Below, one piece after another: positions 4,837 through 63,993 of a stretch of DNA of 64,000 bases. How positions within the stretch are numbered: the first letter of the stretch is position 1; each line of letters opens with the position of its first letter. The stretch covers positions 14,612-78,611 of the forward strand of contig CAZLEO010000002.1 of NCBI GenBank assembly GCA_964558555.1, in the 5' to 3' direction. The DNA comes from an uncultured Rickettsiales bacterium. GTDB lineage: Bacteria > Myxococcota_A > UBA796 > UBA9615 > CAYRNR01. The notes below the pieces were generated by a model, which worked only from the letters and a program-made list of their open reading frames with translations, ran no database searches and was not told where the DNA came from. Position numbers and translations under genes: made by a program.

Positions 4837-5268
4837 CTACCAGCCCTTCTTGCCGACGATCTCCGAGACCGCGTCCTCGGCGCGTTGCCGGGCCAGCGAG
4901 GCCTTGCGGTCGCCGGCCTCCTCGATCTTGGCCAGGAGGTCCTTGAAGTCGGCGGGCTTCTCCAGGAAGTCCATGGCGCCGAGCTTCATCGCTTCCACGC
5001 CTGCGCTCACCGTGGCGTGACCGGTCAACAGGATGATCTGCAGATCCGGATCGGCGACGCGGAGCTTCTTGAGGGTCTCGATTCCGTCGATACCGGGCAT
5101 GGCGAGGTCCAGCACGATCACGTCGTAGTCGCGGGCCTCGGCCATCTCCAGCGCGACGTTGCCATTCTCTGCGGTGGCCACGTCGTAGCCGCGTTTGGCC
5201 ATGCGCTGGGCCAGGGCGGTGAGGAAGAGTTCCTCGTCGTCCACCAGGAGCACTCGGTACTGCGTCAT
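4837..5268 (-). CDS. Stand-alone response-regulator receiver (CheY-like REC) protein
   Basis: MTQYRVLLVDDEELFL...DVIVLDLAMPGIDG...KLGAMDFLEKP contains the canonical REC acidic pocket, the phospho-accepting Asp and the conserved Lys. It is convergent with the kinase across a 6-nt gap. Confidence 0.85.
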   Translation of the reverse strand: MTQYRVLLVDDEELFLTALAQRMAKRGYDVATAENGNVALEMAEARDYDVIVLDLAMPGIDGIETLKKLRVADPDLQIILLTGHATVSAGVEAMKLGAMDFLEKPADFKDLLAKIEEAGDRKASLARQRAEDAVSEIVGKKGW

Positions 5269-39300: not shown

Positions 39301-39852
39301 TCAGGGATCGAGCAGCTCCAGGGCCTTGCCCGCGTACTCCCGGATCCAGGCGTCGTCCGAGTCCAGGGACAGCTGCAACTTCGCCGCCACCCCGTCGAAC
39401 GCCTCCGGATACACGCCGGCCAGCCGCCACACCGCCCAGTGCGCCCCGCGCTCGAACGGCTCCTCGGTGAGGTACTGGGGCAGCATGCGCGCGTACTCGT
39501 CGACCAGCTCGGGCACGTTGACGAGGATCTCGGCCATGATCTCCGGGGCCACCCGCAGCAGCGCGCCGGACTCGTCGTTCATCCACCACATGAGCTTGCG
39601 GATGGTGTCCTTGACGCTCTCGAGGTCGTCTTCGGCCATCACACCAGCGACGCGGCCGCACGCCTCGATGGCCTGCCAGCGGATCGACTCCTCGCGGTCG
39701 TGCACGAATAGCAGCAGGTGTCGGAACGTCCGCTTGGTGCCCGCGTCTCGCGCGTGTCTCACGACGCCGTCGATGTCTCGGCGGGACAGCATCTCGCGGA
39801 TCGCCTTCTTGCCGTTGCGGCGGGCCTGTACTCGATTGCCGATCATGCGCAT
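39301..39852 (-). CDS. HEAT-repeat-like helical protein of unknown function
   Basis: Start MRMIGNR with RBS GGAGGAG. Helical repeats LLLFVHDREESIRWQAIEACG. The family assignment is tentative. Confidence 0.45.
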   Translation of the reverse strand: MRMIGNRVQARRNGKKAIREMLSRRDIDGVVRHARDAGTKRTFRHLLLFVHDREESIRWQAIEACGRVAGVMAEDDLESVKDTIRKLMWWMNDESGALLRVAPEIMAEILVNVPELVDEYARMLPQYLTEEPFERGAHWAVWRLAGVYPEAFDGVAAKLQLSLDSDDAWIREYAGKALELLDP

Positions 39853-39959
39853 GACTCCTCCGGGTGTTCCGGTGGGAGGAAGCTGCAATCGCTGTGCCAT
39901 CGAAGATCTGCTGCGTTGGGGCGGCGGATGCGGTACATCTCCGTCGAAGAGGAGGGCAC

Positions 39960-50248: not shown

Positions 50249-53200
50249 GTGACCGCGTGGGGGCGGACGTTCTGGGAAGTCGATCTGGTGATCGTTCGTA
50301 AGGCGATTCTGCTGCTCCTGGTCCTTGGATCGTGCTCCTCGCCTGGTCGGGCCGAGGGGAGCGACGACGAGCGGTTGCGGATCATCGTTCGCGAAGTCCA
50401 GCACCAGGCGACACAGACGCCCGAAGGGGGCGGAGCTGTCGGTCGGCCCCTCACCGCGGAGGAGATCGAGGCGCTGCTGGGGAGAGTGGAGCCCCTGCCC
50501 GCTGTTCCGACGGCCGACGCGTCGTTCACGGTGCTCGGATCGAGGGCTCGTCCGCGGGGGACCGACGCCGCCGTCGACGCGCCGTTCCCGCCGGCGAGGG
50601 GGCAGCGCGCCGAGGTCCCGCACGCCGATGGTGCGGAGGAGTCGGGCGTACTGGAGGTCCTGCGGTTCGCGCCGGACGGGGTGGTGGACCGCGAAGCGGT
50701 GGTGTCCGTCACGTTCTCGCAGCCCATGGTCGGGGTGGGGGAGCAGGCGCGAGTGGGAATCCCAACGCCTGCTCGCCTGGAGCCCGAGCTCCCGGGGACC
50801 TGGCAGTGGTTGGGGACCCGGACGCTGGTCTTCGAGCCCGCGGAGTCGCTCCCACCGGCCAGCCGGTTCGAGGTCACCGTGCCCGCCTCGACGCAGTCGA
50901 TGCGCGGCGAGGAGCTCGCCGAAGATGTGACGTTCGGCTTCTCGACGCCGCCCCCACGGCTGCGCTCCGGGTCCCCGACCGGCACCGTGCAGGATCGATC
51001 TCCGGTCGTCTTCCTCGTCTTCGATCAGGTCGTGGTCGGGTCCCAGGCCGCAGAGCGGATCGAGCTGGTGGGAGAACGGAGCCACGAGCTGCGACCGGCC
51101 ACCACGGAGGAGATCCGCCAGGAGGAGGAGCCTGACTGGTTCGACAGACGCTACGGTGCCGGCCGCTGGATCGCGCTCGAGCCCGTCGAGCCCCTGCCCC
51201 TCGCCACCGAGTTCAAGGTGACGGTGGCGCCGGTGCCCGGCGTGCCGGACGCACCCCTGCGTGAGCGAGAGGACGACTCGTTCACGTTCACCACGTTCGG
51301 GCCGCTGGAGATCGTGGCCCACCACGGGATGTACGAGTCCGAGTCGTCGGCCTGCCCGGTGGTATCACCGTGGGAGATCGTCCTGAACAACCCCCTCGAT
51401 CCCGACCGGCCGCCCACGGTCTCAGTGCGCCCGGAGCTGCCCGGACTCGAGATCACCGTCGAGGGGAACAAGCTGATCGTCGACGGTGAGCGGGACCGCG
51501 AGACGACCTACACCGTCACCGTCCACGGGGGGCTGCGCGACGTCCACGGCCAGACGCTGGGACGTTCCAGGCAGGTGGTGTTCCGGACCATCCCCTCGCG
51601 GCGGTACCTCGCCGGCCCGCGCGGCGAGCTGATCACCCTGGATCCCGCGGGCCCTGCGACCGTCCCCGTGTACACGGTCAACCACGACTCTCTGAGGGTG
51701 CGCATCCACCGCGTGGACGACGTGATGGGCGACTGGGAGACCTGGCTGCGCTTCTTTCATACGACAGCTCATCCCCGCCAGTGGGACGACCGCCCCCCAC
51801 TGCCTCCCCTGCCGGGGACGGTCCTGTTCGACGCCGAGGTGGACATCGTGGGTGCCCTGGATGATCTCGCCGAGACGCCCGTGGACCTGTCGCCGTACCT
51901 GGTCGATGGCCACGGGCAGTTCATGCTCTGGATCGAACCGACGGACCAGGATGAGTCGTCGCGGAGGATCGACGAGGTGGTCGCCTGGGTCCAGGTCACC
52001 GATCTCGGGCTGACCGCATTCAGCGACCAGGACCAGTTGTTGATCTGGGTCACCGACCTGGCGACAGGGCAGCCGCTGGAGGGCGTGCCGGTCGATCTCC
52101 TCCCCGGAGCCGAGCCGGGGGTTCCGAGCGATGCCGCGGGATGGGTCCGGATCGAGCGGCCCGGTCTGGAGAAGTTGGCCGTGGCGCGGCGCGGTACGGA
52201 CGTGGCGATCCTGCCCGAATTCGACATGTCCTGGACCGATCACTGCCACTGGCACCGGTATTACGACCGCCCCCCTCGGCAGATCTGGTTCGTGATGGAC
52301 GACCGGGGACTGTACCGACCGGGTGAGACCGTCCATCTCAAGGGATGGCTGCGGAACAGGAACCGGGAGACCGACGAGGTCACGCCGCGTATCGAGGGTC
52401 TGCCCGAGGAGGTCCAGTGGCGATTGTGGCAGCCCACGGCGTACGGGGACGACCCGCCCGCCGATCTGGCCAGAGGTGACGCCGCGGTCGGCGATCTGGG
52501 TGGCTTCTCCGTGGAGCTCGAGCTGCCGGCGGACATGGAGCCGGGAGACGCGCACCTGACGTTCTGGCCGGCGGGAGTGGAGAACCCCGGCTGGGCCGAA
52601 CGGCATGTCCACGATTTCCGCGTCGAGGCGATGCGGAATCCAGAGTTCACCGTCGCCCTGTCGGCCGGTCCCGGCCCTGTGGTGGCGGGGGAAGAGGTCG
52701 TCGTCGGTGCGACCACGTCGTACTTCAGCGGGGGCGGCCTCCCGGGCGCGTACACCTATTGGCGGCTGACCGCGCGGGGCACCCGCTATCACCCACCGGG
52801 CCACGAAGACTATGGATTCGGTTTCACCCAGCTGGGGCGCGTGGACGGACCCAGCATGGGATTCCTGGGATCGAAGGGTCTGAGTGGCCGGACCGATGCG
52901 GCGGGTGAGCACCAGATCGCCGTATCGCTGGCCGACCTCGATCCGATGGTGCCGGTCGCCGTCGAGGTGCAGGTGACCGTCGCCGACGTGAACCGCCAGC
53001 GGTGGGCCGCCACGGAGCGCCTGGTCGTGCATCCGGCGCAGCTGTACGTGGGGCTGAAGCCGGTGCGCGACGTCGTCGTCGAGGGCGAGCCCGTCGAGCT
53101 GGACGTGATCGTGGTGGACCTGGACGGAGTCCCGGTCCCCGGCATCGACGTCGAGCTGAGCATGGCCCGGCGCCAGTGGAAGATCAGCGACGGTCGCCGG

Positions 53201-56200
53201 GTGGTCTTCGAGACCGATCCGATGGAGTCGCGCACGACGTCGGAGGACGTCGCGAGGCGTGTCTCCTTCGTACCGGCGGGACCGGGAGTCCAGATCATCG
53301 AGGCCGCGGTCGTCGACGCCCACGGTCGCCGCGCGGCGACCGGAATGCGCGTCTGGGTCGCCGGTGCCTCGGTGCCGTCCGGCCTCGGTGCAGATGCCGC
53401 AGAGGTCGCGGTCACGCTGGTCCCGGAGGACGCCGAGGTCCAGCCCGGTGACGTGGCTCGCATCCACGTCACGGCTCCCTTCTACCCGGCCCACGGCGTG
53501 GTGACGGTCCGGCAGCGCAACGTGCTGACCTTCGAGACCCTCGAACTCCTGGAACCCTCGACCGTCGTGGAGTTGGATGTCCAACAGCGGCATCTGCCGC
53601 AGTTCACGGTGCAGGTGGATCTGGTCGGCTCCAGGATCGGAGACGACGGGCGGCTCCACGTGGCTCACGCGACCGGCGAGGTGACCCTGCATGTTCCGCC
53701 GAGCGATCACCGGCTGGATGTCGAGGTCGCGCCGCGTGACGAGGTCGTCGAGCCCGGCGGCCGGACAGAGATCGCCGTCGTCGTGACCGATCGGTCCGGT
53801 GAACCGGTGGCCGGGGCCGAGGTGGCGGTGTTCGTCGTGGACGAGGCGGTCCATGCGGTGAGCGGGTACGAGCTGCGACATCCCCTCGACGCCATGTACA
53901 CGCCGTCAGCGTGCTACGTGGACGACTTCCGCGGACGCGAGTACGTGGCCTCGTTCGACCAGGAGGCGGCTCGGGCCCGGGCGAGGGATCGCGAGAGCAC
54001 CCACTACTACTACCAGCTCCATCCGGAGCACGCGCATCGGTACTGCATCATCGACGATGGCAGTGACGGCGATGAAGGGGACTACTCCACGCCGGTGTCG
54101 GCCCTTCCGATCCGAGTCCGAGGCGACTTCGATCCGGTCGCCCTCTTCGTTCCAGCGGCGACCACGGACGAGCAGGGACGGGTACGCGTCCCGGTCGAAC
54201 TCCCCGACTCGCTCACTCGATATCGGGTGATGGCCGTCGTCGCCACCGTCGAGGACTTCGGCGCCGGGGAGGACTCGATCACGGCGCGTCTGCCACTGAT
54301 GGTCCGACCGTCTCCACCACGCTTCGTCGCTGCGGTCGATCGTTTCGAGTTGCCCGTCGTACTCCACAACCACACCGGCGATCCCCTCGACGTGGCGCTG
54401 GCCGTGCACGGGGACAACGCCGTCTTCGCCGAGGCCCTCGACCGGCTCGAACCCGGCGCGGTCGCAGGAGACAACACCTCGGGTGTAGCCCTCACCGTCC
54501 CCCCCCACGATCGGATGGAGGTCCGATTCCCCGCCGCGGCCGTTCAGACGGGGACCGCGCGTTTCCAGGCCGTGGCTGCGGCAGGCGTGTACGCGGACGC
54601 GTCCACCTTCGAGCTGCCGGTGAAGGCCCCGCTGCCCCTCGAGTCCTACGCGACCTACGGCACCCTCGACGGGGGCTCGCTCGCGTATGATCTGGGTCTC
54701 CCTGCCGACGCCTGGGAAGGATTCGGCGGGCTGGAGATCGACCTCTCACCCTCGCGCCAGGGCGAGCTGGTGGATGCCAGGCGCTACCTGCGGCGCTATC
54801 CCTTCGCCTGCAGCGAGCAGATCGCCAGTCGCGTGCTCGCCCTGGCCGGGCCACGACACCCGGCGGCTCGACAGGGACCGGGGACTTCTGCGAGAGGGCT
54901 GCGCAGGGCCCTCGACCAGGACCTGGCCGAGATCGTGGCGCGCCATAACGACGACGGCGGCTGGCCCCTGTGGGCCAGGGGCCACGATTCCCTCCCCTTC
55001 CTCTCGGTCCACGTGACCCACGCCCTGGTCCGCGCCCGGGAGCGCGGCCACGACGTCCCGGACGCGACGCTCGTTCAGGCCACCGCCTACCTGGCGAACA
55101 TCGACGGCCACCTCCCCGGCACCCTGTCGCCGCGGACTCGATGGACCATCCGCGCGTACGCGCTGAACGTACGCTTCCGCCACGACGGCACCGGCACTGA
55201 TGCGGCTGCCGCGCTGCTCGCAGAGGTGGGGGTGGAGGACCTCCCCGAAGAGGCGATGGGGTGGCTGCTGCCGGTGCTGGCGGGGGGTGGGGAGGCCGAC
55301 GCTGCGGCACGTATCCGGCAACAGCTGCGCGACACCGTCACCGAGACCGCCGACACCGCGCACTTCGACTCGGGCTATGGACGAGACGGATTCCGTGTGT
55401 TCCACGGCAGCTTCCGGGCCGACGCCGTCATCCTGGAGTCCCTGATCGACGTCGATCCGGACAGCGACCTGATCCCCAAGCTCGCCAGGGGCCTGCTGGC
55501 CAGCCGCGTGGACGGCCGCTGGCTCAACACCCAGGACACCGGCTTCGTCACGCGGGCCCTGACCCGGTACTTCGAGACCCACCAGGGTCATCGGCCGAGG
55601 TTCGTCACGCGTGTGTGGATCGGGGATCGCTTCGCGGGCAAGCGTGCGTTCCGTCCGGCCCGCCTCGAGTCAGCCCGTATCCGGGTCCCCCTGGCGACCC
55701 TCGCCGAGACACCCGACGGCCAGCAGCTGACCCTGGCGATGAAGGGCAAGGGACGGCTCCACTACCGGATCGGGATCGAGTTCGCCCCGCTCGATCCCGG
55801 TCAGCCTCCGCTGGATCGAGGATTCGGCATCGAGCGCGAGTACCGCGCCCTCGACGATCCCGAGGACGTCAGGCAGGGCGCGGACGGCACGTGGCACATC
55901 CGGGCGGGAGCCCGCGTCCAGGTACGCCTCGTCCTGGATTCGAGCTCGCACCACCACCACGTGGCCCTGGTCGATCCGCTGCCCGCGGGCCTGGAGCCGG
56001 TCAACCTCGCGCTCGAGGGCACGGGTCGCGCCGACCGATCCAACGAGTGGTGGTGGCGCTACTGGTACGACCACGAGGCCATGCACGACGACCGCGTCGA
56101 GGTCTTCGCGGAGCAACTGTGGGAGGGCGCGGTCGTCTACACCTACATCGCCGAGGCCACGACTCCGGGGATCTTCGTCGCGCCAGCAGCTCGGGCCGAG

Positions 56201-56260
56201 GAGATGTACCGGCCGGAGATTTTCGGCCGCACCGGGACCGGGTGGGTGGTGATCGAGTAG
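50249..56260 (+). CDS. Alpha-2-macroglobulin-family giant protein, paralog 2 (~2000 aa), lipoprotein, with candidate CSEQ thioester motif
   Basis: Collinear similarity to 42439..48606 (VLEVLRFAPDG...SVTFSQPMVGV...PGTWQWLGTRTLVFEP; RYPFACSEQIASRVL; C-terminus GIFVAPAARAEEMYRPEIFGRT). Signal plus lipobox LLLLVLGSC. The true start may be a downstream GTG. Confidence 0.7.
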   Translation: MTAWGRTFWEVDLVIVRKAILLLLVLGSCSSPGRAEGSDDERLRIIVREVQHQATQTPEGGGAVGRPLTAEEIEALLGRVEPLPAVPTADASFTVLGSRARPRGTDAAVDAPFPPARGQRAEVPHADGAEESGVLEVLRFAPDGVVDREAVVSVTFSQPMVGVGEQARVGIPTPARLEPELPGTWQWLGTRTLVFEPAESLPPASRFEVTVPASTQSMRGEELAEDVTFGFSTPPPRLRSGSPTGTVQDRSPVVFLVFDQVVVGSQAAERIELVGERSHELRPATTEEIRQEEEPDWFDRRYGAGRWIALEPVEPLPLATEFKVTVAPVPGVPDAPLREREDDSFTFTTFGPLEIVAHHGMYESESSACPVVSPWEIVLNNPLDPDRPPTVSVRPELPGLEITVEGNKLIVDGERDRETTYTVTVHGGLRDVHGQTLGRSRQVVFRTIPSRRYLAGPRGELITLDPAGPATVPVYTVNHDSLRVRIHRVDDVMGDWETWLRFFHTTAHPRQWDDRPPLPPLPGTVLFDAEVDIVGALDDLAETPVDLSPYLVDGHGQFMLWIEPTDQDESSRRIDEVVAWVQVTDLGLTAFSDQDQLLIWVTDLATGQPLEGVPVDLLPGAEPGVPSDAAGWVRIERPGLEKLAVARRGTDVAILPEFDMSWTDHCHWHRYYDRPPRQIWFVMDDRGLYRPGETVHLKGWLRNRNRETDEVTPRIEGLPEEVQWRLWQPTAYGDDPPADLARGDAAVGDLGGFSVELELPADMEPGDAHLTFWPAGVENPGWAERHVHDFRVEAMRNPEFTVALSAGPGPVVAGEEVVVGATTSYFSGGGLPGAYTYWRLTARGTRYHPPGHEDYGFGFTQLGRVDGPSMGFLGSKGLSGRTDAAGEHQIAVSLADLDPMVPVAVEVQVTVADVNRQRWAATERLVVHPAQLYVGLKPVRDVVVEGEPVELDVIVVDLDGVPVPGIDVELSMARRQWKISDGRRVVFETDPMESRTTSEDVARRVSFVPAGPGVQIIEAAVVDAHGRRAATGMRVWVAGASVPSGLGADAAEVAVTLVPEDAEVQPGDVARIHVTAPFYPAHGVVTVRQRNVLTFETLELLEPSTVVELDVQQRHLPQFTVQVDLVGSRIGDDGRLHVAHATGEVTLHVPPSDHRLDVEVAPRDEVVEPGGRTEIAVVVTDRSGEPVAGAEVAVFVVDEAVHAVSGYELRHPLDAMYTPSACYVDDFRGREYVASFDQEAARARARDRESTHYYYQLHPEHAHRYCIIDDGSDGDEGDYSTPVSALPIRVRGDFDPVALFVPAATTDEQGRVRVPVELPDSLTRYRVMAVVATVEDFGAGEDSITARLPLMVRPSPPRFVAAVDRFELPVVLHNHTGDPLDVALAVHGDNAVFAEALDRLEPGAVAGDNTSGVALTVPPHDRMEVRFPAAAVQTGTARFQAVAAAGVYADASTFELPVKAPLPLESYATYGTLDGGSLAYDLGLPADAWEGFGGLEIDLSPSRQGELVDARRYLRRYPFACSEQIASRVLALAGPRHPAARQGPGTSARGLRRALDQDLAEIVARHNDDGGWPLWARGHDSLPFLSVHVTHALVRARERGHDVPDATLVQATAYLANIDGHLPGTLSPRTRWTIRAYALNVRFRHDGTGTDAAAALLAEVGVEDLPEEAMGWLLPVLAGGGEADAAARIRQQLRDTVTETADTAHFDSGYGRDGFRVFHGSFRADAVILESLIDVDPDSDLIPKLARGLLASRVDGRWLNTQDTGFVTRALTRYFETHQGHRPRFVTRVWIGDRFAGKRAFRPARLESARIRVPLATLAETPDGQQLTLAMKGKGRLHYRIGIEFAPLDPGQPPLDRGFGIEREYRALDDPEDVRQGADGTWHIRAGARVQVRLVLDSSSHHHHVALVDPLPAGLEPVNLALEGTGRADRSNEWWWRYWYDHEAMHDDRVEVFAEQLWEGAVVYTYIAEATTPGIFVAPAARAEEMYRPEIFGRTGTGWVVIE

Positions 56261-56319: not shown

Positions 56320-56868
56320 ATGCAGTACGAGCTCGCCACCCGCGTTGGATCCGGGGTCGTCCGCCACACCCTCGACGGCGACTACATGACCGTGGAGTAC
56401 GAAAAGACGGGCCGGCGCGACGTGATCCCGCTGGACGACGTCACGCAGCTGCACCTGCTGCGCGAGTTCGCGGGGATCTACCGGATGAAGGTCTCGCGGC
56501 GGCGCGGAAGGACGCTGTCCATCCCGTCGAGGCATTTCGAGGCGGTTGGGCAGTTCGAGGACCGGGGTCCGCAGTACGCCGAGTTCGTGCGTACGCTCCA
56601 CGCCGAGTGCCACCGCGTCACGCCGCGCACCAGGTTCGTGGCGGGGTCGACGTTCTTGTTCTGGCTGGGCTGGTTCTTCGTCGTCTGCGGCGCTGCGCTG
56701 GGGCTCCTCCTGTTGCAGGACATGGCGGCCGCGCCCTGGGCTCCGCCGCTGAAGCTCGTATGGATCCTGCCGATGATGGCCGTGGTGGGGGCGTCGCTCA
56801 TCGTGCAGGGGAGGCGGGTGCGGTACGAGCACCACTCGATCCCTGCGAAGTTCCTGCCGGGTGGCTGA
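56320..56868 (+). CDS. Hypothetical membrane protein
   Basis: 182 aa with two C-terminal TM helices. No recognised domain. Confidence 0.45.
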   Translation: MQYELATRVGSGVVRHTLDGDYMTVEYEKTGRRDVIPLDDVTQLHLLREFAGIYRMKVSRRRGRTLSIPSRHFEAVGQFEDRGPQYAEFVRTLHAECHRVTPRTRFVAGSTFLFWLGWFFVVCGAALGLLLLQDMAAAPWAPPLKLVWILPMMAVVGASLIVQGRRVRYEHHSIPAKFLPGG

Positions 56869-56903
56869 CCGCTGCGAGCCTGATCTCGCAGAACCTCGAA
56901 GGT

Positions 56904-57554
56904 TCAGAATCGCCCGACAACGGCCACGCCGGCCTCCGTGGAGGTCGCCCACGGGACGAACACGGGAACGCTCGCGGTCGCCGTCGCGGGCACCTGCTTG
57001 CTCGACGCAGCGGTGATGATCCCCGGGATCAGCATCCCCAGCGCCACGCCAGCGTGGGCGGTGATCATGATCCAGGGGAGCGGCGCGAGGGCCGGGCCCG
57101 GGCCCATGCCGTAGCTGTCGTCGGGATCCGAACTCTCCGACGTGATGGCGAGCTGTATGACCAGGTCGACCAGGGCCACCAGTCCGCTGTAGGCCGCCCC
57201 CTCGAACAGGCCGATGGAGAGGGCCCGCAGGTCTGACGCGGGGGTGCCGTCCGAGAGGAGGCGACGGAAGCCGTCGGCGGTGATCGGCGCGAACGGGATG
57301 CTCACGCCGTGAACGATGGGCCGCCCGACGCTGTACAGGTAGAAGTCCGTTCGTCCCACCGCGACCATCGTCAGGCCGACACCCTGCACCACCAGTCCCG
57401 AGACGACCATCGCGCGCCCCTGGCGCACCGTCTTGTCGCGGTCGGGGTCGGCATCGGCGGCGAACGCCGGGACCACGGATGCCACGGCCATGGCCAGTGC
57501 GATCGCGATGCTCCACGCGTCCGCGGTCCTTGTCCTCGTGCGGGCGCGGCTCAT
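56904..57554 (-). CDS. Hypothetical secreted or membrane protein, last gene of the kor-rubredoxin operon
   Basis: Start MSRARTRTRTADAWSIAIALAMAVASVVPAFAAD with signal peptide and RBS GGAGGAG. Hydrophobic C-terminal half. Confidence 0.5.
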   Translation of the reverse strand: MSRARTRTRTADAWSIAIALAMAVASVVPAFAADADPDRDKTVRQGRAMVVSGLVVQGVGLTMVAVGRTDFYLYSVGRPIVHGVSIPFAPITADGFRRLLSDGTPASDLRALSIGLFEGAAYSGLVALVDLVIQLAITSESSDPDDSYGMGPGPALAPLPWIMITAHAGVALGMLIPGIITAASSKQVPATATASVPVFVPWATSTEAGVAVVGRF

Positions 57555-57910
57555 GGGATCTCCTCCAGCACAACGGTCACGTCCTCGGTGATCACGTGGC
57601 AGAAGTCCCGGTCGACGAACACGTCGGTGAGCACCGCCTCGAACCCGTCCGCGCTGACCTCGATGTCGATGGCGCCGCTGGCCTCCCAGCCGCAGTCCCA
57701 CCGGTCCGAGTGGTCGCTGAACTCGCAGTCCTGGAATTCGGGATCGTCGCTCGATGCGACGAGGTAGCGGACTGCCGCGTCGATCACCACGTCGCCGTGG
57801 ACGTCGACCACGGTCACATGGACGGATTCAACCTCCTCTTCGGTACAGGTGCAGCCGATCCAGACGGCCATGGCGGCGGCGAGCGCCGCGAAAACGCGCA
57901 GATTCGTCAC
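57551..57910 (-). CDS. Small lipoprotein of unknown function
   Basis: GTG start with RBS GGAGGAA. Signal plus lipobox AMAVWIGCTC. 119 aa. Confidence 0.45.
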   Translation of the reverse strand: MTNLRVFAALAAAMAVWIGCTCTEEEVESVHVTVVDVHGDVVIDAAVRYLVASSDDPEFQDCEFSDHSDRWDCGWEASGAIDIEVSADGFEAVLTDVFVDRDFCHVITEDVTVVLEEIP

Positions 57911-57978
57911 GGTTCCTCCTTCGGCCCCTGCCTGGAGGATGTGAGCGAAGCAGGATTCGTGACGATCCGTCGTGCGGC

Positions 57979-58923
57979 TCAGTGCCCGAAGACCAGCTTG
58001 CCCCCCAGCATGCCCAGGCGGGCGGTGAGGGCGTTGCCCACCAGCAGCAGGCCGGTGAAGGCGCCGATCTCGACGACACCGGTGGGGGCCTCGGTCCAGC
58101 CGGCCCAGAAGCGGAAGCCGACGGTGAGGGCGGCGACGACCATCAGCACCCACGACCACAGCTTCTTCTCGGGGAAGATGCCGGTGGTGGTGGAGCCGAA
58201 GCGGTGCCTGGCGTCGGACCAGCCGGAGTAGAAGGTGACCGGCGACACGACCATGGCGATGAGCGCGAGGTAGGTGGTGGTGCGCTCGAGGGAGGCCTCG
58301 CCGGTGATCAGGAAGGCGATCCAGAACAGCAGGGCCAGGGGCAGCGCGCCGTTGGGGAAGTGGGCCGAGACCGGATGCAGGTGGAGGCGCTCGATGAGGC
58401 CGGAGAAGCCCTTGTGGTGGTGGTCGGGGCTCTCGGTCTCGGGCTCGAAGTAGTCCTTGCCCTTGCCGCAGACCGGGCAGACGTCGGGGGGTTCGGGGCC
58501 GTCGTGGATGTAGTTGCAGACCACGCAGCGCCAGCGGTCGGCTTTCACCGGCTTCTTGGGCTCCGGCGTGGGCTCGGCGGCCTTGGCCTTCGGTCGGGCC
58601 GGCGGAGGGTGCTCCTGGCCCTGTTCGTGGGGCACGAACGCGGTCCAGGGTTTGCGGCAGACCGGGCACTCGTCGGGGGGGGAGTCGCCGTGGTGGATGT
58701 AGCGGCAGACGGTGCAGTACCACTGTCGCTCGGTGCTGACGTCCTCGGTCGCCTCGCCCTCGGTGGGCTCCTCGTCCTCGGTGGGCTCGTCGTCCTGAGT
58801 GGGCTCCTCGTCCTCTTCCTCGACCGGCTCGAAGAACTCCTTGCCCTTCTTGCACACGGGGCAGATGTCGGGGGGCTCGTCGCCTTCGTGGACGTACTTG
58901 CAGATCGTGCAGATCCACTTCAT
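57979..58923 (-). CDS. Triple-rubredoxin fusion protein with C-terminal 4-TM membrane domain
   Basis: Three Fe(Cys)4 rubredoxin modules: WICTICKYVH...DICPVCKKGK, WYCTVCRYIH...DECPVCRKPW and WRCVVCNYIH...DVCPVCGKGK. They are separated by acidic or Pro/Lys linkers. A hydrophobic domain with HLHPVSAHFP follows. Confidence 0.75.
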   Translation of the reverse strand: MKWICTICKYVHEGDEPPDICPVCKKGKEFFEPVEEEDEEPTQDDEPTEDEEPTEGEATEDVSTERQWYCTVCRYIHHGDSPPDECPVCRKPWTAFVPHEQGQEHPPPARPKAKAAEPTPEPKKPVKADRWRCVVCNYIHDGPEPPDVCPVCGKGKDYFEPETESPDHHHKGFSGLIERLHLHPVSAHFPNGALPLALLFWIAFLITGEASLERTTTYLALIAMVVSPVTFYSGWSDARHRFGSTTTGIFPEKKLWSWVLMVVAALTVGFRFWAGWTEAPTGVVEIGAFTGLLLVGNALTARLGMLGGKLVFGH

Positions 58924-58933
58924 CGGACCGCTC

Positions 58934-59806
58934 CTAGATGAACTCGGACTTGATGGCCTCGTACGCCTCGTCGGGAAGCGGCCGCAGGCCGCGCTCGACC
59001 AGCGGGCCGTCGGCCAGGGCGGGGAGCTGGGACTCGTAGCTCGGCGCCTCGGCGTCGCGGTAGAGCACGCCCACGGGGATGCGATCGCCCCACTCGAGGG
59101 CCTTGCCCATGGCCGCGCCGAGGTCGGAGGTGTCGTAGCCCTCCTCCTCGTCGAGCTTGTACACGCGCTGGCGGTACCAGGGGTAGCTGAGCGCAGGGTT
59201 GAAGGTGACGCAGACCTGCAGGGTGTCGATCAGGGCGTAGCCCGGGTGGTCCATGGCCTGGCGGATCAGATCGGCGAAGTGGGCCATGTCCAGGGGGAAG
59301 GCGCGGGCCACGAAGGTGGCGCCGGCGGCCAGGGCGACGCTGAGGGGGTTGATGGGCTGGTCGACGGCGCCCTCGGGGGAGGTCTTGGAGACGAACCCGG
59401 CGGGGCTGGTGGGGGAGTACTGGCCCTTGGTCAGGCCGTACACGCGGTTGTTCTGGACCAGGTCCACCAGGCCGATGTTGCGGCGGGCGGCGTGGATGAA
59501 GTGGTTGCCGCCCATGCCGTAGCCGTCGCCGTCGCCGTGCACGACCAGGACCTTCATGCCGTGGTTGGCCAGGCGGACACCGGTGGCCACGGCCACGGCG
59601 CGGCCGTGCAGGGTGTGGAACCCGTTGACCTTCATGTAGTGGGGCATCTTCGAGCCGCAGCCGATGCCGGAGATGAGCTGGACCTGGTGGGGGGCCACGT
59701 CGGCCTCGGCCAGCGCGCGCTTGAGCGCGGCGAGGATGCCGAAGTTGCCGCAACCGGGACACCAGGTGGGGTCCATGGACCCCTGGTAGTCGTTGGCGGT
59801 GACCAT
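58934..59806 (-). CDS. korB: 2-oxoacid:ferredoxin oxidoreductase beta subunit (TPP-binding, KorB-like)
   Basis: WCPGCGNFGIL...GIGCGSKMPHY...VVHGDGDGYGMGGNHFIHAARRN carries the TPP-binding GDG motif and Cys ligands. RBS GAGGAGG. Confidence 0.85.
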   Translation of the reverse strand: MVTANDYQGSMDPTWCPGCGNFGILAALKRALAEADVAPHQVQLISGIGCGSKMPHYMKVNGFHTLHGRAVAVATGVRLANHGMKVLVVHGDGDGYGMGGNHFIHAARRNIGLVDLVQNNRVYGLTKGQYSPTSPAGFVSKTSPEGAVDQPINPLSVALAAGATFVARAFPLDMAHFADLIRQAMDHPGYALIDTLQVCVTFNPALSYPWYRQRVYKLDEEEGYDTSDLGAAMGKALEWGDRIPVGVLYRDAEAPSYESQLPALADGPLVERGLRPLPDEAYEAIKSEFI

Positions 59807-59808
59807 GT

Positions 59809-61557
59809 TCACACCTCCTCGGAGAGCCGGCCGACGATGAAGTCGGCGGACAGGGGACGGCCGTCCCACTTGAGGACCTCGCCCTCGAACGTGCAGCCGA
59901 GCTCGCTGCGCAGGACGGACGCCAGCTGGCCCGTGGAGTTGCCCTCCACGGCGACCAGCCGCCCGGCCTTGACCAGCTCGTCCAGCGCGGCGTCCCGGTC
60001 CAGGGGCCACAGGTCGGCGAACTGCAGCACGTTGACCGATCCGCCGCCGGCGTTGATCTGCGCGGCGGCCTCGCGGGCGGGGCCGGTGGTGCCGCCCCAG
60101 CACACCAGGGTCGTGTCGGCGTCCTCGGGGCCGTGCCAGACGGGCGCTCTCATCTCTGCCGCGGCTGCGGCCAGCTTGCTCATGCGCTTGTACTGCTGCG
60201 TGGTGCGGGTCTCGGCGTCCTCGGTGAGGGCGCCGGCGGTGGTGTGCTCGTTGCCGGTGATCGTGAACACGGCCCTGGGGTGGCCGGGCAGGGCCCGCGG
60301 CGACACGCCGGTGTTCGTCACCTCGTAGCGCACGTAGGGCACATCCAGCTCGTCCAGGGCCGCCGCGTCCAGCAGGGAGCCGCGGTCGATGTGGACCTTC
60401 GACACGTCGAACACGTCGGTCTCCACGGTGCGGATGGACGTGGCGAGGTAGTGCTCGGTGAGCACGATGACCGGGCACTGATACTGCTCGGCGAGGTTGA
60501 ACGCCCGCCAGCCCGCCTCGAAGCACTCCTCGATGGTGCCGGGGGCGAGCAGGATGCGCGGGAACTCCCCGTGGCCCGCGTGCAGGGCGAACTTCAGGTC
60601 TGCCTGCTCGGTGCGGGTGGCCAGGCCGGTGGCCGGGCCCGGGCGCTGGGCCAGGACGATCACCGCCGGGGTCTCGCTCATCCCGGCCAGGCTGAGCGCC
60701 TCGACCATCAGCGAGAAGCCGCCGCCCGACGTGGAGGTCATGGCGCGTGCGCCCATGTGGGCCGCGCCGACGACCATGTTCATCGCCGAGATCTCGTCCT
60801 CGGTGTGCTTGACCACGACGCCGTGGCTGGCGCCCTTGCCCGCGAGCCACTCGAAGATGGAGGTGCCCGGGGTCATGGGGTAGGCCGCGAGGAAGCTGCA
60901 GCCCCCGACCAGGGCGCCGTAGGCCAGGGCGTGGTTGCCGTCGATCAACATCCGCTCGGGCGGGTCGTCCTGGGCGCGCAGCCGGTACTCGAACCCCTCG
61001 GCGTGGTGCTCGGCGCCGTACTCGTAGGCGGCCCTGGCCACGGCGCGGTTGGCCTCGATGACCTTGTCGCCCTTCTTCTTGAACTGCCGCGCGAGGGTGT
61101 CCAGCAGCGGCTCGATGGGATAGCGGAACACCGCCGCGGCCACGGCCACGGACGCGGCCCCGGCCATGACGGGCCTGCCGCCGATCTCCTTGGCGATCTT
61201 GATCAGCGGCGCGGGCATCGCCCGGACGCCGCGCGACTCCAGGGCCGCGACGTCCACCTCGAGGTCCTCGTCGTAGATCACGCCGCCACCGGGCACGATC
61301 TGGTCGGCGAAGCGACCCACGGCCTCGGGGGTCTGCGCGAGCAGCAGGTGGATGTGGTGGCCGTGCGCGTGCACCGGGTCCTCGTCCACGTCCATGCGGT
61401 AGAAGTTGAGGCCGCCGCGGATGCGGGACTCGTAGTCCTTGCGGCCGAACACGTGCAGGCCGCCCCGCGCCAGGGTGCGGGCCAGCAGCGCGCCGTTGGA
61501 CTCGACCCCCTGGCCGGCCTGGCCGGCGAACTTGATGGCGATTCTCTGTTCCGTCAT
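59809..61557 (-). CDS. korA: 2-oxoacid:ferredoxin oxidoreductase alpha subunit (KorA-like)
   Basis: 582-aa OFOR alpha/gamma fusion typical of two-subunit KorAB enzymes (AYPMTPGTSIFEWLA, GGGFSLMVEALSLAGMSETPAVIVLAQRPGPATG). Confidence 0.85.
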   Translation of the reverse strand: MTEQRIAIKFAGQAGQGVESNGALLARTLARGGLHVFGRKDYESRIRGGLNFYRMDVDEDPVHAHGHHIHLLLAQTPEAVGRFADQIVPGGGVIYDEDLEVDVAALESRGVRAMPAPLIKIAKEIGGRPVMAGAASVAVAAAVFRYPIEPLLDTLARQFKKKGDKVIEANRAVARAAYEYGAEHHAEGFEYRLRAQDDPPERMLIDGNHALAYGALVGGCSFLAAYPMTPGTSIFEWLAGKGASHGVVVKHTEDEISAMNMVVGAAHMGARAMTSTSGGGFSLMVEALSLAGMSETPAVIVLAQRPGPATGLATRTEQADLKFALHAGHGEFPRILLAPGTIEECFEAGWRAFNLAEQYQCPVIVLTEHYLATSIRTVETDVFDVSKVHIDRGSLLDAAALDELDVPYVRYEVTNTGVSPRALPGHPRAVFTITGNEHTTAGALTEDAETRTTQQYKRMSKLAAAAAEMRAPVWHGPEDADTTLVCWGGTTGPAREAAAQINAGGGSVNVLQFADLWPLDRDAALDELVKAGRLVAVEGNSTGQLASVLRSELGCTFEGEVLKWDGRPLSADFIVGRLSEEV

Positions 61558-61597
61558 CGAATACCTCGATTCTTCGCCTCGACGCCGGGCAGTCTAT

Positions 61598-61612
61598 GCA
61601 GATTCGGTGCCA
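61598..61612 (-). promoter_or_regulatory. Candidate sigma-54 promoter upstream of korA
   Basis: The minus strand reads TGGCACCGAATCTGC: a perfect -24 TGGCAC, and CTGC at -12 (1 mismatch to TTGC), with correct GG-N10-GC spacing. It lies ~40 nt upstream of the korA start. Confidence 0.5.
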
Positions 61613-61815
61613 TTGTCTGCAGACCGGTCGCCTCGGCTGGCGTGCACCGGAGGGAGCCTCCCGCGGAGAGCCGGTGGGACAGGTGGCGGTGTCTCCTGAG
61701 ACATCACACCGTTCGCGAGACAGGCCGACGAGGCGGGTCGTCGCGGCTCGAAGATCGCGTCAAGGGCTCGACGTGCAACGCCCGCCAGGGGTTCTGGCGA
61801 CCCTCTCGCCCCCGT

Positions 61816-61831
61816 TGGTACGGACCTTGCT
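61816..61831 (+). promoter_or_regulatory. Candidate sigma-54 promoter upstream of the erythrin-like gene pair
   Basis: TGGTACGGACCTTGCT against TGGCAC-N5-TTGCW: 1 mismatch, perfect -12, correct spacing. About 60 nt upstream of ATG 61894. Confidence 0.5.
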
Positions 61832-61893
61832 ATTCTCTCGTCTCGTCCCCACGGCGGACGGTCGCTGCGGGAGATCGACAAGAGGGAGCAGCG

Positions 61894-62388
61894 ATGGCTC
61901 AGAGCTTCAACATCGACGAGATCCTGCAGATGGCCACCCAGATCGAGCGCAACGGCGGCAAGTTCTACCGCCTGGCCGCCGATCTGACCGACGACGAGCC
62001 GGTCAGGCAGACCCTGACCATGCTCGCGCAGATGGAGGACGACCACGAGGTCACCTTCGAGTCCATGCGCGAGTCGGGCGACTTCTCCGGCTTCGACGAG
62101 TTCGATCTCGACGGCCAGGCGGGCGCCTACCTGCAGGCGGTCGCGGACGGGTACGTCTTCGACGTCAACGAGGACCCGGCCGACGTGCTGGCGGGCAACC
62201 CCGACGCCCTGCGCATCCTGCGCATCGCCATCGGCCGGGAGAAGGACGCGGTCACGCTGTTCGCCGGCCTCAAGGAGGCCATGCCCAGCACCTGGGGACA
62301 GGACAAGGTCGACGCCATCATCCGCGAGGAGCTGTCCCACATCGCCATCCTCAGCAACGAGATCCGCCAATTGAAGGAGCGCAACTGA
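61894..62388 (+). CDS. Ferritin-like/rubrerythrin-family di-iron four-helix-bundle protein (erythrin-like, no rubredoxin domain)
   Basis: Di-iron ligand pattern E(IERNGGKFY)...ExxH(MEDDHE)...E(GREKDAV)...ExxH(EELSHI). RBS GAGGGAG. Confidence 0.65.
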   Translation: MAQSFNIDEILQMATQIERNGGKFYRLAADLTDDEPVRQTLTMLAQMEDDHEVTFESMRESGDFSGFDEFDLDGQAGAYLQAVADGYVFDVNEDPADVLAGNPDALRILRIAIGREKDAVTLFAGLKEAMPSTWGQDKVDAIIREELSHIAILSNEIRQLKERN

Positions 62389-62915
62389 TGTCCGATACGC
62401 CTACCTTTGGTCAGATCGTGGCCACCGCCCTGGAGATGGAGGGCAAGGGTCGAAGGTTCTATGCAGAGCAGCTCACCAAGTGCGGCAACGCCTTGACCAA
62501 GGAGCTGTTCCAGCGGCTGCACGACGACGAGATCGAGCACGTGCGCCGCATCAAGAACATCGTGGCGTCCCTGGACGCGGGTGTGAGCCTCGACGGCGTC
62601 GAGTTCGGCGATCCCGACGAGGACGACCTCGGTTCGTTCTTCCGCACCATGGCCCGCAAGCACGGCGCCAGCGTGGACGACCAGACCGTGGACGTGGAGG
62701 CGGTGGAGATCGGCATCGACTTCGAGCAGCGGGCGGTGACCTTCTACAAGGACCGCCTGGAGATCTCCACGGATCCGGCCGAGCGCAGATTCCTCCAGGC
62801 CATGGTCACCGAGGAGCGGGGCCACCACGCCACGCTGCGCGATCTGAAGTTCTACCTCACCGATCCCGAGGGGTACTTCGCCGAGCTCGAGCGCGCCGGC
62901 CTCGACGGCGCGTGA
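62388..62915 (+). CDS. Ferritin-like/rubrerythrin-family di-iron protein, paralog 2
   Basis: E(LEMEGKGRRFY)...ExxH(DEIEHV)...E(DFEQRAV)...ExxH(EERGHH). Start overlaps the upstream stop (TGATG). Confidence 0.65.
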   Translation: MSDTPTFGQIVATALEMEGKGRRFYAEQLTKCGNALTKELFQRLHDDEIEHVRRIKNIVASLDAGVSLDGVEFGDPDEDDLGSFFRTMARKHGASVDDQTVDVEAVEIGIDFEQRAVTFYKDRLEISTDPAERRFLQAMVTEERGHHATLRDLKFYLTDPEGYFAELERAGLDGA

Positions 62916-62925
62916 GCGATTCCCG

Positions 62926-63993
62926 TCAGGAACGCTCGGGGACCCTCGCCTCGGTCGGAAGGATGGGCATGATCTTGATGCCCACCACGAACAGCAACCC
63001 GACGAAACCGAAGACGCCCAGCGCCTGGAGGAACTCCAGGAAGGTGGGCGTGTAGGTGGCGACCCCTTCCACGGCCGTGTAGGCGGCGAACTCCGCGGGT
63101 GTGGGCACGATCTCCATGCCGGGGAACAGGTCGGCGGGGTGGATCAGGCCCGGGATCACGATGACGTAGCGCTCGCACAGCACGCCGAACACCACCATGG
63201 AGCCGGCGACGACCACGCCTCGCACCGTCTTGCCGTAGCGGCTGAAGAGGATGAACAGCGGCGTGACGAATCCGACCAGGAACATCCCGCCCCAGAACAA
63301 GAAGCCGTGGAAGCCCTCGAACAGGTAGTGAATCGCGGCCTCCCGGGACCCGATCATGTAGAAGCGATGGAGGTTCTCGATCAGGATGAGGTACAGCACC
63401 ACGATGATGAACACGCTCATCAGCCGGCCCAGCCAGATCACCAGCTGGTCGTCCAGGTGCCGCTTCGTCAGCCTGAACAGCACCACGAACAGCACGATGA
63501 TGAACCCCGCGCCGGACGCCAGGGCCGCGGCCACGAAGCTCGGCGGCAGCAGCGGCGACGTGTACAGCTCCCGGGGTACGAAGCCGAAGATCGCGGCCGT
63601 GCCGCTGTGCACCATGATGGCCCAGCCCACGACCACGTAGGCCGACACCTTGGTCAGCCGCGGCATCTCCCGGAGCAGGGCGAACAGGTAGACGACGCAC
63701 AGGAAGATGTGCCCACCGTACAGTCCGGGATTGATGGAGAACATCGACAGCAGGTTGAAGTGCACGAAGGGCTCGATGAAGAACCGATCGAGCCGCCCCT
63801 GATCCGTGGTGATGGACAGCAGCCCCGCGATCAGGAAGAGCATCGCCATGAAGGCGGCGAGCCGGGCGAAGGGCTTGTAGTCGAGCTTGCCGAAGACCCC
63901 GTAGAGGCCCGACACGATCAGCGATCCTGCCGACAGCCCGATGTAGTAGATCGCCAGGATGATCTGCAGCCCCCACGCCGCGCGGTTGGTCAT
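62926..63993 (-). CDS. NrfD/PsrC-family polytopic membrane protein
   Basis: Start MTNRAAWGLQIIL at the window edge. About 9 TM helices with NrfD-like topology. Partner subunits presumably lie beyond the window. Confidence 0.6.
   Translation of the reverse strand: MTNRAAWGLQIILAIYYIGLSAGSLIVSGLYGVFGKLDYKPFARLAAFMAMLFLIAGLLSITTDQGRLDRFFIEPFVHFNLLSMFSINPGLYGGHIFLCVVYLFALLREMPRLTKVSAYVVVGWAIMVHSGTAAIFGFVPRELYTSPLLPPSFVAAALASGAGFIIVLFVVLFRLTKRHLDDQLVIWLGRLMSVFIIVVLYLILIENLHRFYMIGSREAAIHYLFEGFHGFLFWGGMFLVGFVTPLFILFSRYGKTVRGVVVAGSMVVFGVLCERYVIVIPGLIHPADLFPGMEIVPTPAEFAAYTAVEGVATYTPTFLEFLQALGVFGFVGLLFVVGIKIMPILPTEARVPERS

Follow-up and report, generated by a model that had tools for sequence, protein, structure and literature searches.

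Three rubrerythrin-type rubredoxin modules fused to a DUF2231 membrane domain, encoded behind a 2-oxoacid oxidoreductase and close to erythrin genes

We have analyzed a 64,000-nucleotide stretch of contig CAZLEO010000002.1 (hereafter the window), and in particular the gene at positions 57979-58923 of its minus strand, where the list of open reading frames (ORFs) gives an ATG-started frame of 314 amino acids; the plus-strand translation of the same interval is meaningless. The encoded protein, here called the target, carries three rubredoxin-like modules separated by long linkers and followed by a membrane domain. The identical protein (P0001) is encoded on 5 contigs from metagenomes or metagenome-assembled genomes (MAGs). 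Directly ahead of the gene lie korB and korA, coding for the subunits of a 2-oxoacid:acceptor oxidoreductase (OFOR), and beyond korA a gene pair of opposite orientation to the operon encodes erythrin-like diiron proteins (Table 1). The korB stop codon occupies 58934-58936 and the target gene begins with its ATG at 58923, so that 10 nt separate the two genes; a preliminary description of this DNA had placed the gene directly behind korB, which is correct, but at a distance of 11 nt. The AGGAG Shine-Dalgarno sequence of the target gene overlaps the korB stop codon. Relatives from other genomes are referred to below by locus (L) or protein (P) number.

Table 1. Coordinates of the target gene, its parts and its neighbors, in positions of the window (aa, amino acids; nt, nucleotides; TM, transmembrane helix)
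Feature	Position	Strand	Basis
Target gene: three RUBY_RBDX modules and DUF2231 membrane domain, 314 aa	57979..58923 (stop codon included)	-	ORF, Pfam
Module 1 WICTICKYVHEGDEPPDICPVCKKGKEFF, residues 3-31, CxxC-x12-CPVC	58831..58917	-	Pfam, alignment
Acidic linker 1, residues 32-67	58723..58830	-	composition
Module 2 WYCTVCRYIHHGDSPPDECPVCRKPWTAF, residues 68-96, position-specific CPVCxKPW signature	58636..58722	-	Pfam, alignment
Pro/Lys-rich linker 2, residues 97-130	58534..58635	-	composition
Module 3 WRCVVCNYIHDGPEPPDVCPVCGKGKDYF, residues 131-159, adjoins membrane domain	58447..58533	-	Pfam, alignment, model
DUF2231 domain	57982..58410	-	Pfam, AlphaFold2 model m506a40ee9a16, loop charges
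Motif HLHPVSAHFPNG, H181-x-H183-P-x3-H188-x-P-N-G, residues 181-192, predicted cytoplasmic start of TM1	58348..58383	-	
OFOR beta subunit 'korB', 290 aa, TPP_enzyme_C and PFO_beta_C	58934..59806	-	TIGR02177, 357 bits vs 262
OFOR alpha subunit 'korA' with fused gamma domain, 582 aa, POR, POR_N and Transketolase_C	59809..61557	-	TIGR03710, 613 bits vs 483
Sigma-54-type promoter TGGCACCGAATCTGCA, 40 nt upstream of korA ATG	61597..61612	-	pattern scan, conserved in 6 orthologous loci
Perfect palindrome TGTCTCCTGAGACA between both promoters	61690..61703	.	conserved
Sigma-54-type promoter TGGTACGGACCTTGCT, 62 nt upstream of erythrin-1 ATG	61816..61831	+	pattern scan
Erythrin-like diiron protein 1 (Ery1), 164 aa, E...ExxH twice, no rubredoxin domain	61894..62388	+	TM1526 match
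Erythrin-like diiron protein 2 (Ery2), 175 aa, no rubredoxin domain	62388..62915	+	Pfam Rubrerythrin, 45 bits vs 22.8
Sigma-54-type promoter TGGCACAGCGATTGCA, 31 nt upstream of HEAT-protein ATG	39884..39899	-	pattern scan
DVU0298-family HEAT-repeat protein, 18 kb from target	39301..39852	-	family match
Downstream ORF, 119 aa, lipoprotein-like N-terminus, possibly co-transcribed, membership uncertain	57551..57910	-	no family match
Downstream ORF, 216 aa, 4-nt overlap with 119-aa ORF, membership uncertain	56904..57554	-	no family match

Pfam recognizes three RUBY_RBDX (PF21349) stretches in the target (E = 1.3e-36, 124.1 bits against a cutoff of 26.5). All three modules follow the pattern CxxC-x12-CxxC, and the 12 residues between their Cys pairs compare with about 27-29 in classical rubredoxins (PF00301). 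The classical-rubredoxin equivalog NF045768 (RubredRD) gave 26.5 bits against a cutoff of 90; because this is far under the cutoff, we assign the modules to the short rubrerythrin type with CxxC-x12-CPxC and not to the canonical rubredoxins. In a profile search of Protein Data Bank (PDB) sequences their best match was the rubredoxin domain of D. vulgaris rubrerythrin (E = 2e-9), and the rubrerythrin model NF045767 (84.9 bits against a cutoff of 200) was matched only at profile positions 158-192, which correspond to its rubredoxin part. The three complete rubredoxin modules of the preliminary description are thus three Cys4 modules, but of a shorter kind than the name implies. Its acidic and Pro/Lys-rich linkers are borne out by composition, with 18 Asp/Glu in about 35 residues of linker 1 and 9 Pro plus 7 Lys/Arg in the 34 residues of linker 2.

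The same description had named loss of the Cys motifs in orthologues as a result that would count against it; we found all 12 Cys kept in every three-module orthologue examined. A full-length search retrieved RUBY_RBDX-DUF2231 relatives with 1, 2, 3 or 4 modules, with four Cys per module and a spacing that is always x12. Within the three-module clade, modules at the same position share an identity of 0.72-0.78 (0.73 for module 1), as against 0.56-0.67 between positions, and each position has its own conserved signature. The higher identity at the same position argues that all three modules are under selection, and these comparisons indicate that the triplication is old and that all three copies are maintained. 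Module 3, which is modeled with a predicted local distance difference test (pLDDT) score of 86-92, is the one that aligns with the relatives having a single module. In a distant three-module homologue from Desulforhopalus sp. IMCC35007 (L035, 9995-10993), the middle module reads CSVSGY, with Ser in place of its second Cys; outside the clade of the window, then, additional modules can degenerate.

The C-terminal part, described earlier as a hydrophobic domain with four transmembrane helices and a His-Pro motif, proved on the profile search proposed for it to be DUF2231 (PF09990): its score of 31.5 bits exceeds the gathering threshold of 26.4, and the match runs from residue 182 to 314 and covers profile positions 4-133 of 139. 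The same family was recovered in each of the 25 relatives tested. Residues 127-314 were modeled with AlphaFold2 on the basis of 73 relatives (pLDDT 92.8, predicted template modeling score 0.80); the model comprises module 3, a short amphipathic helix at 172-179 and four long ones at 182-207, 210-242, 250-274, and 283-312. Conservation was read from alignments of 74, 32, 73 and 25 relatives. Across the sets of 74 and of 73, conservation of the motif HLHPVSAHFPNG is complete or reaches 99%; residues H183, P184, H188, P190, N191, G192, P195, P228, G234, K253, G304, G307, G308, K309, and L310 are invariant, and H181, T247 and F250 nearly so. The model places the conserved His, the Lys and the Gly-Gly-Lys, and likewise P184, P190, N191, and G192, at helix ends on the N-terminal (cytoplasmic) side; the His, Lys and Gly-Gly-Lys residues there stand beside module 3. 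No signal peptide was found in the target. Clusters of Lys/Arg lie ahead of TM1, in the loop from TM2 to TM3 and at the C-terminal end; by the positive-inside rule, the modules and the two termini are expected on the cytoplasmic side (N-in/C-in).

So strong a conservation at the cytoplasmic face is not expected of a passive anchor. Moreover, DUF2231 occurs elsewhere fused to cytochrome b5-like haem domains (Pfam-confirmed), and such a choice of small one-electron carriers as partners argues that the domain itself joins in electron transfer. Judged from these patterns, DUF2231 is probably a redox module, whose conserved site probably binds a cofactor or quinone and may link the array to the membrane pool. 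The cytochrome b5-like proteins (P0260, P0314, P0350) have the haem carrier in the N-terminal position held in the target by the modules, thus a haem domain instead of a predicted Fe(Cys)4 module, and are likewise uncharacterized. One member of the set formed by these three together with P0271 and P0303 also carries a response-regulator receiver, and P0303 is a fatty-acid desaturase followed by a DUF2231-like tail. Ligation of haem by the conserved His of DUF2231 itself was considered and not adopted: all three His lie in TM1 and TM2-4 have no invariant His, so that a haem could be bound only by a dimer. Among PDB sequences, a profile search matched the rubredoxin module only and found no solved-structure relative of DUF2231, and a full-text search found no functional literature on DUF2231, PF09990 or DVU0298.

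The fusion is catalogued and common. A profile of the membrane domain matched at least 1780 protein clusters, and nearly all of the top 120 matches are single-module proteins of about 200-215 aa; a scan of one genome per species gave at least 445 species genomes with a relative. The carriers are mostly Desulfobacterota, among them the cultured Desulfonema magnum, Desulfopila aestuarii, Desulforhopalus, Desulfatitalea, Desulfosarcina cetonica, and Desulfobotulus, and further include a MAG clade labeled Rickettsiales, Gemmatimonadota, Polyangia, and Myxococcales. Run exhaustively with only the membrane domain as query, phmmer gave 162 clusters (50% identity), and we sorted the best 150 by their N-terminal content. 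Rubredoxin-like modules are present in 81 of these 150 representatives (one module in 60, two in 14, three in 5, four in 2); a further 14 carry a Pfam-confirmed cytochrome b5-like haem domain, 37 have nothing extra at the N-terminus, and 18 have other content, in one case the fatty-acid-desaturase fusion. Most relatives thus have one module, and only a minority have three. A metagenome scan with the single protein gave 8 loci, mostly short, and was not used.

The preliminary description had not recognized the architecture, which turns out to be in the databases already as 'rubredoxin-like domain-containing protein' or 'DUF2231 domain-containing protein'. It had also reckoned with a common annotated family whose characterized role lies elsewhere; the family is indeed common and catalogued, but no such role emerged from the literature search. 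The Desulfobacterota proteins with a single module (e.g., Desulfobotulus alkaliphilus LZ24_00650 and those of Desulfonema magnum and Desulfopila aestuarii) share with the target the two-domain architecture and the invariant HxHPxxxHxPNG ... K ... GGKLVF. The Desulfobacterota relatives differ in having one or two modules, a length of about 200-260 aa and 26-35% identity, and in being monocistronic, in housekeeping neighborhoods and without an OFOR link; they are likewise uncharacterized. Tandem RUBY_RBDX modules occur as well in fusions with a flavoprotein resembling NADH:rubredoxin oxidoreductase (NROR; L005 10284-11759, P0058, P0062, P0070, P0075, P0076), one of which lies 1.3 kb downstream of a target orthologue (L005), and with a flavin reductase (P0073) or a cupin (P0048). 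Such fusions to several partners make the module array look like a reusable cassette.

The two genes ahead of the target had been read as KorAB, a 2-oxoacid:ferredoxin oxidoreductase. The profiles resolve them only as a two-subunit 2-oxoacid:acceptor oxidoreductase (TIGR03710 and TIGR02177 above cutoff), while all 2-oxoglutarate-specific equivalogs stay under their cutoffs (NF007206, 174 bits against 579; NF007207, 188 against 364). No ferredoxin (Fer4) domain was found in the OFOR and no ferredoxin gene within the operon. The order korA-korB-target is kept in six distinct orthologues of 62-100% identity (window/L001, L015, L005/L017, L027, L105, and L007/L016), two of which have only two modules; the target gene starts 10 nt behind korB or, as in L007, overlaps it by 4 nt. 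At 61% identity or less the link is absent (L008/L019, L009/L022, L011, L013, L018-L026, L103, L104, L106), as it is from about 65 Desulfobacterota loci. Among at least 7937 matches to KorA at 1e-50, the target-linked clade comprises 11 clusters, after which identity falls to 56%. The link is confined to one marine MAG clade, and coupling to Kor, real as the arrangement is in these orthologues, does not represent the function of the family. The absence of the link at 61% identity or less argues for a single lineage-specific recruitment. The target is an uncharacterized three-module variant that combines a lineage-specific place in the OFOR operon with the conserved control region described below, which it shares with the erythrins.

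One candidate link in Desulfobulbales was rejected. The weak KorA-like matches found 1-2 kb downstream of the target homologue in about 13 loci (L035, 12052-15882, and about 12 others) stem from a gamma-like subunit encoded in a separate operon for indolepyruvate:ferredoxin oxidoreductase (IorAB) and phenylacetate-CoA ligase. That operon lies behind a CBS-domain gene on the opposite strand, and we judged it to be synteny of the lineage and not a second OFOR link.

The 336-bp region between korA and the erythrin-1 gene contains two outward-facing sigma-54-type promoters with a palindrome between them. The sigma-54 pattern has 3 matches in the window where 0.19 are expected. In six orthologous loci both promoters and the palindrome are invariant or nearly so, while the flanks are only about 50% identical. 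Alignment A4 shows an invariant palindrome core, TGTC.C / GAGACA, which recurs in L025, a locus without Kor, upstream of a ferritin-erythrin operon; TGTCTCCTGAGACA is probably the site of an enhancer-binding protein. The third promoter precedes the gene of a HEAT-repeat protein. Promoters of this gene were found in L007 (9437) and L105 (4352) too, and in the sister loci L007, L016, L025, and L105 the HEAT gene stands beside the target, ferritin and erythrin genes. On account of the shared promoters and of this linkage, the OFOR-target operon appears to form a single sigma-54 regulon with the genes of the erythrins and of the HEAT protein. The window encodes an NtrC/AtoC-like sigma-54-dependent response regulator with a GAFTGA motif (19753-21123, plus strand), a candidate activator that nothing ties to the palindrome. 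A scan of 56700-62000 for sigma-70 promoters and intrinsic terminators found nothing either way. In L107, which holds the nearest out-group OFOR (56% identity) and lacks the target, a 24-nt perfect palindrome AATTGAGAACGATCGTTCTCAATT lies just upstream of korA (4940-5000) and no sigma-54 promoter is present, pointing to another regulator for a comparable set of genes.

In the three-module clade as a whole, the genes that recur beside the target are those of oxidative stress and iron. The divergent pair of rubredoxin-less erythrins is found in the window, L005, L007, L015-17, L027, and L105, and also in the Kor-less L025; the nearest solved structure to Ery1 is the diiron-carboxylate protein TM1526 (E = 7.5e-9). 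A ferritin gene is adjacent in L005, L007/L016, L025, and L106. In addition, L005 has a rubrerythrin and the fusion of a double RUBY_RBDX with NADH:rubredoxin reductase, L007 a Ni-superoxide dismutase, and L105 desulfoferrodoxin and rubrerythrin, while in L106 the target homologue shares one operon with ferritin, a class-A flavodiiron protein and a reverse rubrerythrin. In a Myxococcales MAG (L021, 18-5548), a three-module homologue closes the series sufB-sufD-Rieske-sufS-sufU-DUF59, separated from it by about 57 nt. Finally, the out-group OFOR of L107 is surrounded by DJ-1, superoxide reductase (SOR), a ferritin/rubrerythrin-like protein, FMN reductase, flavodoxin, rubrerythrin, AhpC, a nitroreductase and two erythrins, which indicates that this OFOR lineage is generally embedded in clusters for defense against reactive oxygen species (ROS).

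Other genes close by were recorded for completeness. Directly beside the erythrin genes lies a membrane redox complex with an NrfD-type membrane subunit, 4Fe-4S proteins and an Hdr/FlpD-like flavoprotein (62926-63993, minus strand, and beyond; L001 1-3998). The 119-aa ORF downstream of the target is not beside it in L015. A 2003-aa alpha-2-macroglobulin-like protein (50249-56260, plus strand; bMG3, MG2, A2M, and bMG10 domains according to the L001 gene table) is preceded by a second large ORF of 2055 aa (42439-48606). The MAGs with the closest orthologues (L015, L016, L017, L025, L027) are labeled 'uncultured Rickettsiales bacterium'; the 69% G+C of the window, its sigma-54 promoters, and its NrfD and multihaem-cytochrome neighbors make this label look wrong.

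Taken together, these observations can be accommodated by a model in which the membrane-anchored array feeds rubredoxin-less diiron ROS reductases, with the OFOR as the likely donor in this lineage; in our judgment the chances for and against it are about even. Three rubrerythrin-type Fe(Cys)4 centers would act as one-electron carriers on flexible linkers facing the cytoplasm, next to the His3/Lys2/Gly cluster that DUF2231 would expose at the cytoplasmic membrane face beside module 3. The array would deliver electrons to cytoplasmic diiron or iron enzymes reducing H2O2, O2 or superoxide, presumably the two erythrins here and a class-A flavodiiron protein, superoxide reductase or rubrerythrin in sister lineages. 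In the marine lineage the gene would have been recruited as third cistron of the operon of a two-subunit OFOR devoid of a ferredoxin domain, giving the path 2-oxoacid to OFOR [4Fe-4S] to rubredoxin modules to erythrins, possibly with electrons passing also to or from the membrane site, and one sigma-54 activator would switch on the whole set together. Several points weigh against this model. The metal in the Cys4 modules could be zinc. An OFOR works at roughly -500 mV, and reducing a rubredoxin-type center with it wastes much free energy. A purely cytoplasmic path from Kor through the modules to the erythrins leaves the role of the membrane domain unexplained. Ery1 scores 19.8 bits with Pfam Rubrerythrin, under the cutoff of 22.8. 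Furthermore, about 65 Desulfobacterota loci outside the three-module clade have only housekeeping synteny (mnmE, yidC, a CBS protein and a separate IorAB operon, by neighbor clustering of 80 genome loci) and give no functional signal, and the neighbors at L103, L104, L009, and L020 are uninformative.

Electrons might, alternatively, come from the quinone pool, with (mena)quinol reducing DUF2231 and thence the array, the cytoplasmic erythrins, flavodiiron protein, SOR and rubrerythrin, in which case the OFOR would be merely co-regulated, as an oxygen-labile enzyme in need of protection and not as electron donor. This would account for the family in hundreds of Kor-less genomes, for the conservation of a membrane domain, and for the ROS-defense neighbors of the Kor-less L025 and L106. 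The rubredoxin center of D. vulgaris rubrerythrin has an unusually high potential of about +230 mV, and at such a potential of a rubrerythrin-type center the step from menaquinol would be downhill. Nevertheless, we consider a quinol-driven defense unlikely, as the tight coupling to korB is kept over 62-100% identity and DUF2231 has no known quinol-oxidation motif. Electrons might instead flow in the opposite direction, from the OFOR over the three modules to a quinone-reducing His/Lys site in DUF2231 and on to the respiratory chain. The preliminary description had proposed delivery from 2-oxoacid oxidation either to the membrane, as in this route, or to peroxide-detoxifying erythrins, and our observations support it in part. 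The translational coupling of the target to korB (with the overlap in L007), the OFOR lacking a ferredoxin domain, the conserved polar cluster at the membrane-cytoplasm interface beside module 3 and the fusion of DUF2231 to other one-electron carriers all fit such a 2-oxoacid:quinone oxidoreductase, as do sdhCAB adjoining the operon in L005 and the NrfD/4Fe-4S membrane complex adjoining it in the window. However, most family members have no OFOR nearby, and the erythrin co-regulation as well as the ferritin, flavodiiron protein, SOR and rubrerythrin neighbors would be left unexplained, which makes this route distinctly unlikely. Its boldest form, in which KorAB, a three-rubredoxin wire and DUF2231 make up a membrane-coupled 2-oxoacid:quinone oxidoreductase and DUF2231, by way of its conserved His cluster, is a new cofactor- or quinone-binding redox domain that takes up electrons from small cytoplasmic carriers (rubredoxin-like or cytochrome b5-like) in hundreds of anaerobic and microaerobic bacteria, seems to us quite improbable.

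The iron genes suggest a different role, in which the Cys4 modules and the His cluster would sense, chaperone or move iron, or build and repair the Fe-S and diiron centers of the OFOR and the erythrins during oxidative stress, by analogy with the erythrin-VIT1 iron exporter MbfA and with the assembly functions proposed for RubA and HoxR/HupI. Indeed, ferritin is adjacent in four sub-lineages, the homologue of L021 stands directly behind sufBD-sufS-sufU, both Ery1 and Ery2 weakly match the erythrin domain of MbfA, and rubredoxins that aid metalloenzyme assembly or oxygen tolerance have been discussed (PMC3772215). On the other hand, the replacement of the modules by a cytochrome b5-like domain on the same membrane domain points to electron transfer, and a four-helix bundle without conserved intramembrane acidic or His residues is a poor transporter candidate, so that we regard iron handling as highly improbable. 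There is, lastly, only the slightest chance that no functional coupling exists and that a generic membrane protein with zinc-ribbon-like decorations came to lie behind korB by accident in one lineage. The Kor link is confined to one clade and Pfam does give weak matches to zinc-ribbon families (Spt4, DUF7129/7130); however, the latter are all under cutoff, compared with 124 bits for RUBY_RBDX, the operon and control region are conserved while the flanks diverge, and ROS and iron neighbors recur in independent lineages.

The supply of electrons to the erythrins by the array, which we favor, has parallels in known systems. The target modules share the short CxxC-x12-CxxC type with the C-terminal domain of rubrerythrin (PF21349; D. 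vulgaris rubrerythrin, PDB 1RYT/1B71), which feeds electrons to a diiron peroxidase site in the same chain; in the target, by contrast, three copies follow one another on long linkers ahead of a membrane domain, and the diiron erythrins are encoded separately. In the oxygen defense of Desulfovibrio and Clostridium, rubredoxin is the donor to SOR, flavodiiron proteins and rubrerythrin. The same set of partners stands beside target orthologues (SOR and rubrerythrin in L105, flavodiiron protein and rubrerythrin in L106, the NROR fusion in L005), but the carrier is here membrane-bound and multi-domain, and the proposed reductant is the OFOR or the quinone pool instead of NADH. A precedent for the first step was taken from the reference list of PMC3772215: in Chlorobium tepidum, as listed there (reference 24; J Biol Chem 274:29772), rubredoxin accepts electrons from pyruvate:ferredoxin oxidoreductase. 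That rubredoxin is soluble, single-domain and classical, with no operon fusion reported, and it may apply to the target only by analogy.

The tethering of a rubredoxin-type domain by a C-terminal hydrophobic segment recalls RubA/RBD1, for which protection or assembly of an oxygen-exposed redox complex has been proposed (PMC3772215). RubA/RBD1 has one classical long-loop domain, a single transmembrane helix and an association with photosystem II (PSII) genes, whereas the target has three short modules and four transmembrane helices; it does not fall within RubA/RBD1, and no photosystem genes lie nearby. Membrane-bound rubredoxins have been stated to be exclusive to PSII organisms (PMC3772215), and our full-text search for membrane-bound or membrane-anchored rubredoxin gave RubA/RBD1 papers only. 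Given that the RUBY_RBDX-DUF2231 family occurs in many non-phototrophs, this exclusivity fails for rubredoxin-like domains in general.

The target is therefore not a new kind of protein but a variant of a large, already catalogued family, for which the functions discussed here are proposals. How two-subunit OFORs are re-oxidized in bacteria that meet oxygen is poorly known, and so is the electron source of rubredoxin-less erythrins. A rubredoxin array encoded in an OFOR operon and co-regulated with erythrins is a concrete candidate for both questions. It would provide the first functional handle on the widespread DUF2231 domain, and membrane-bound rubredoxin-type proteins would then not be restricted to oxygenic phototrophs.

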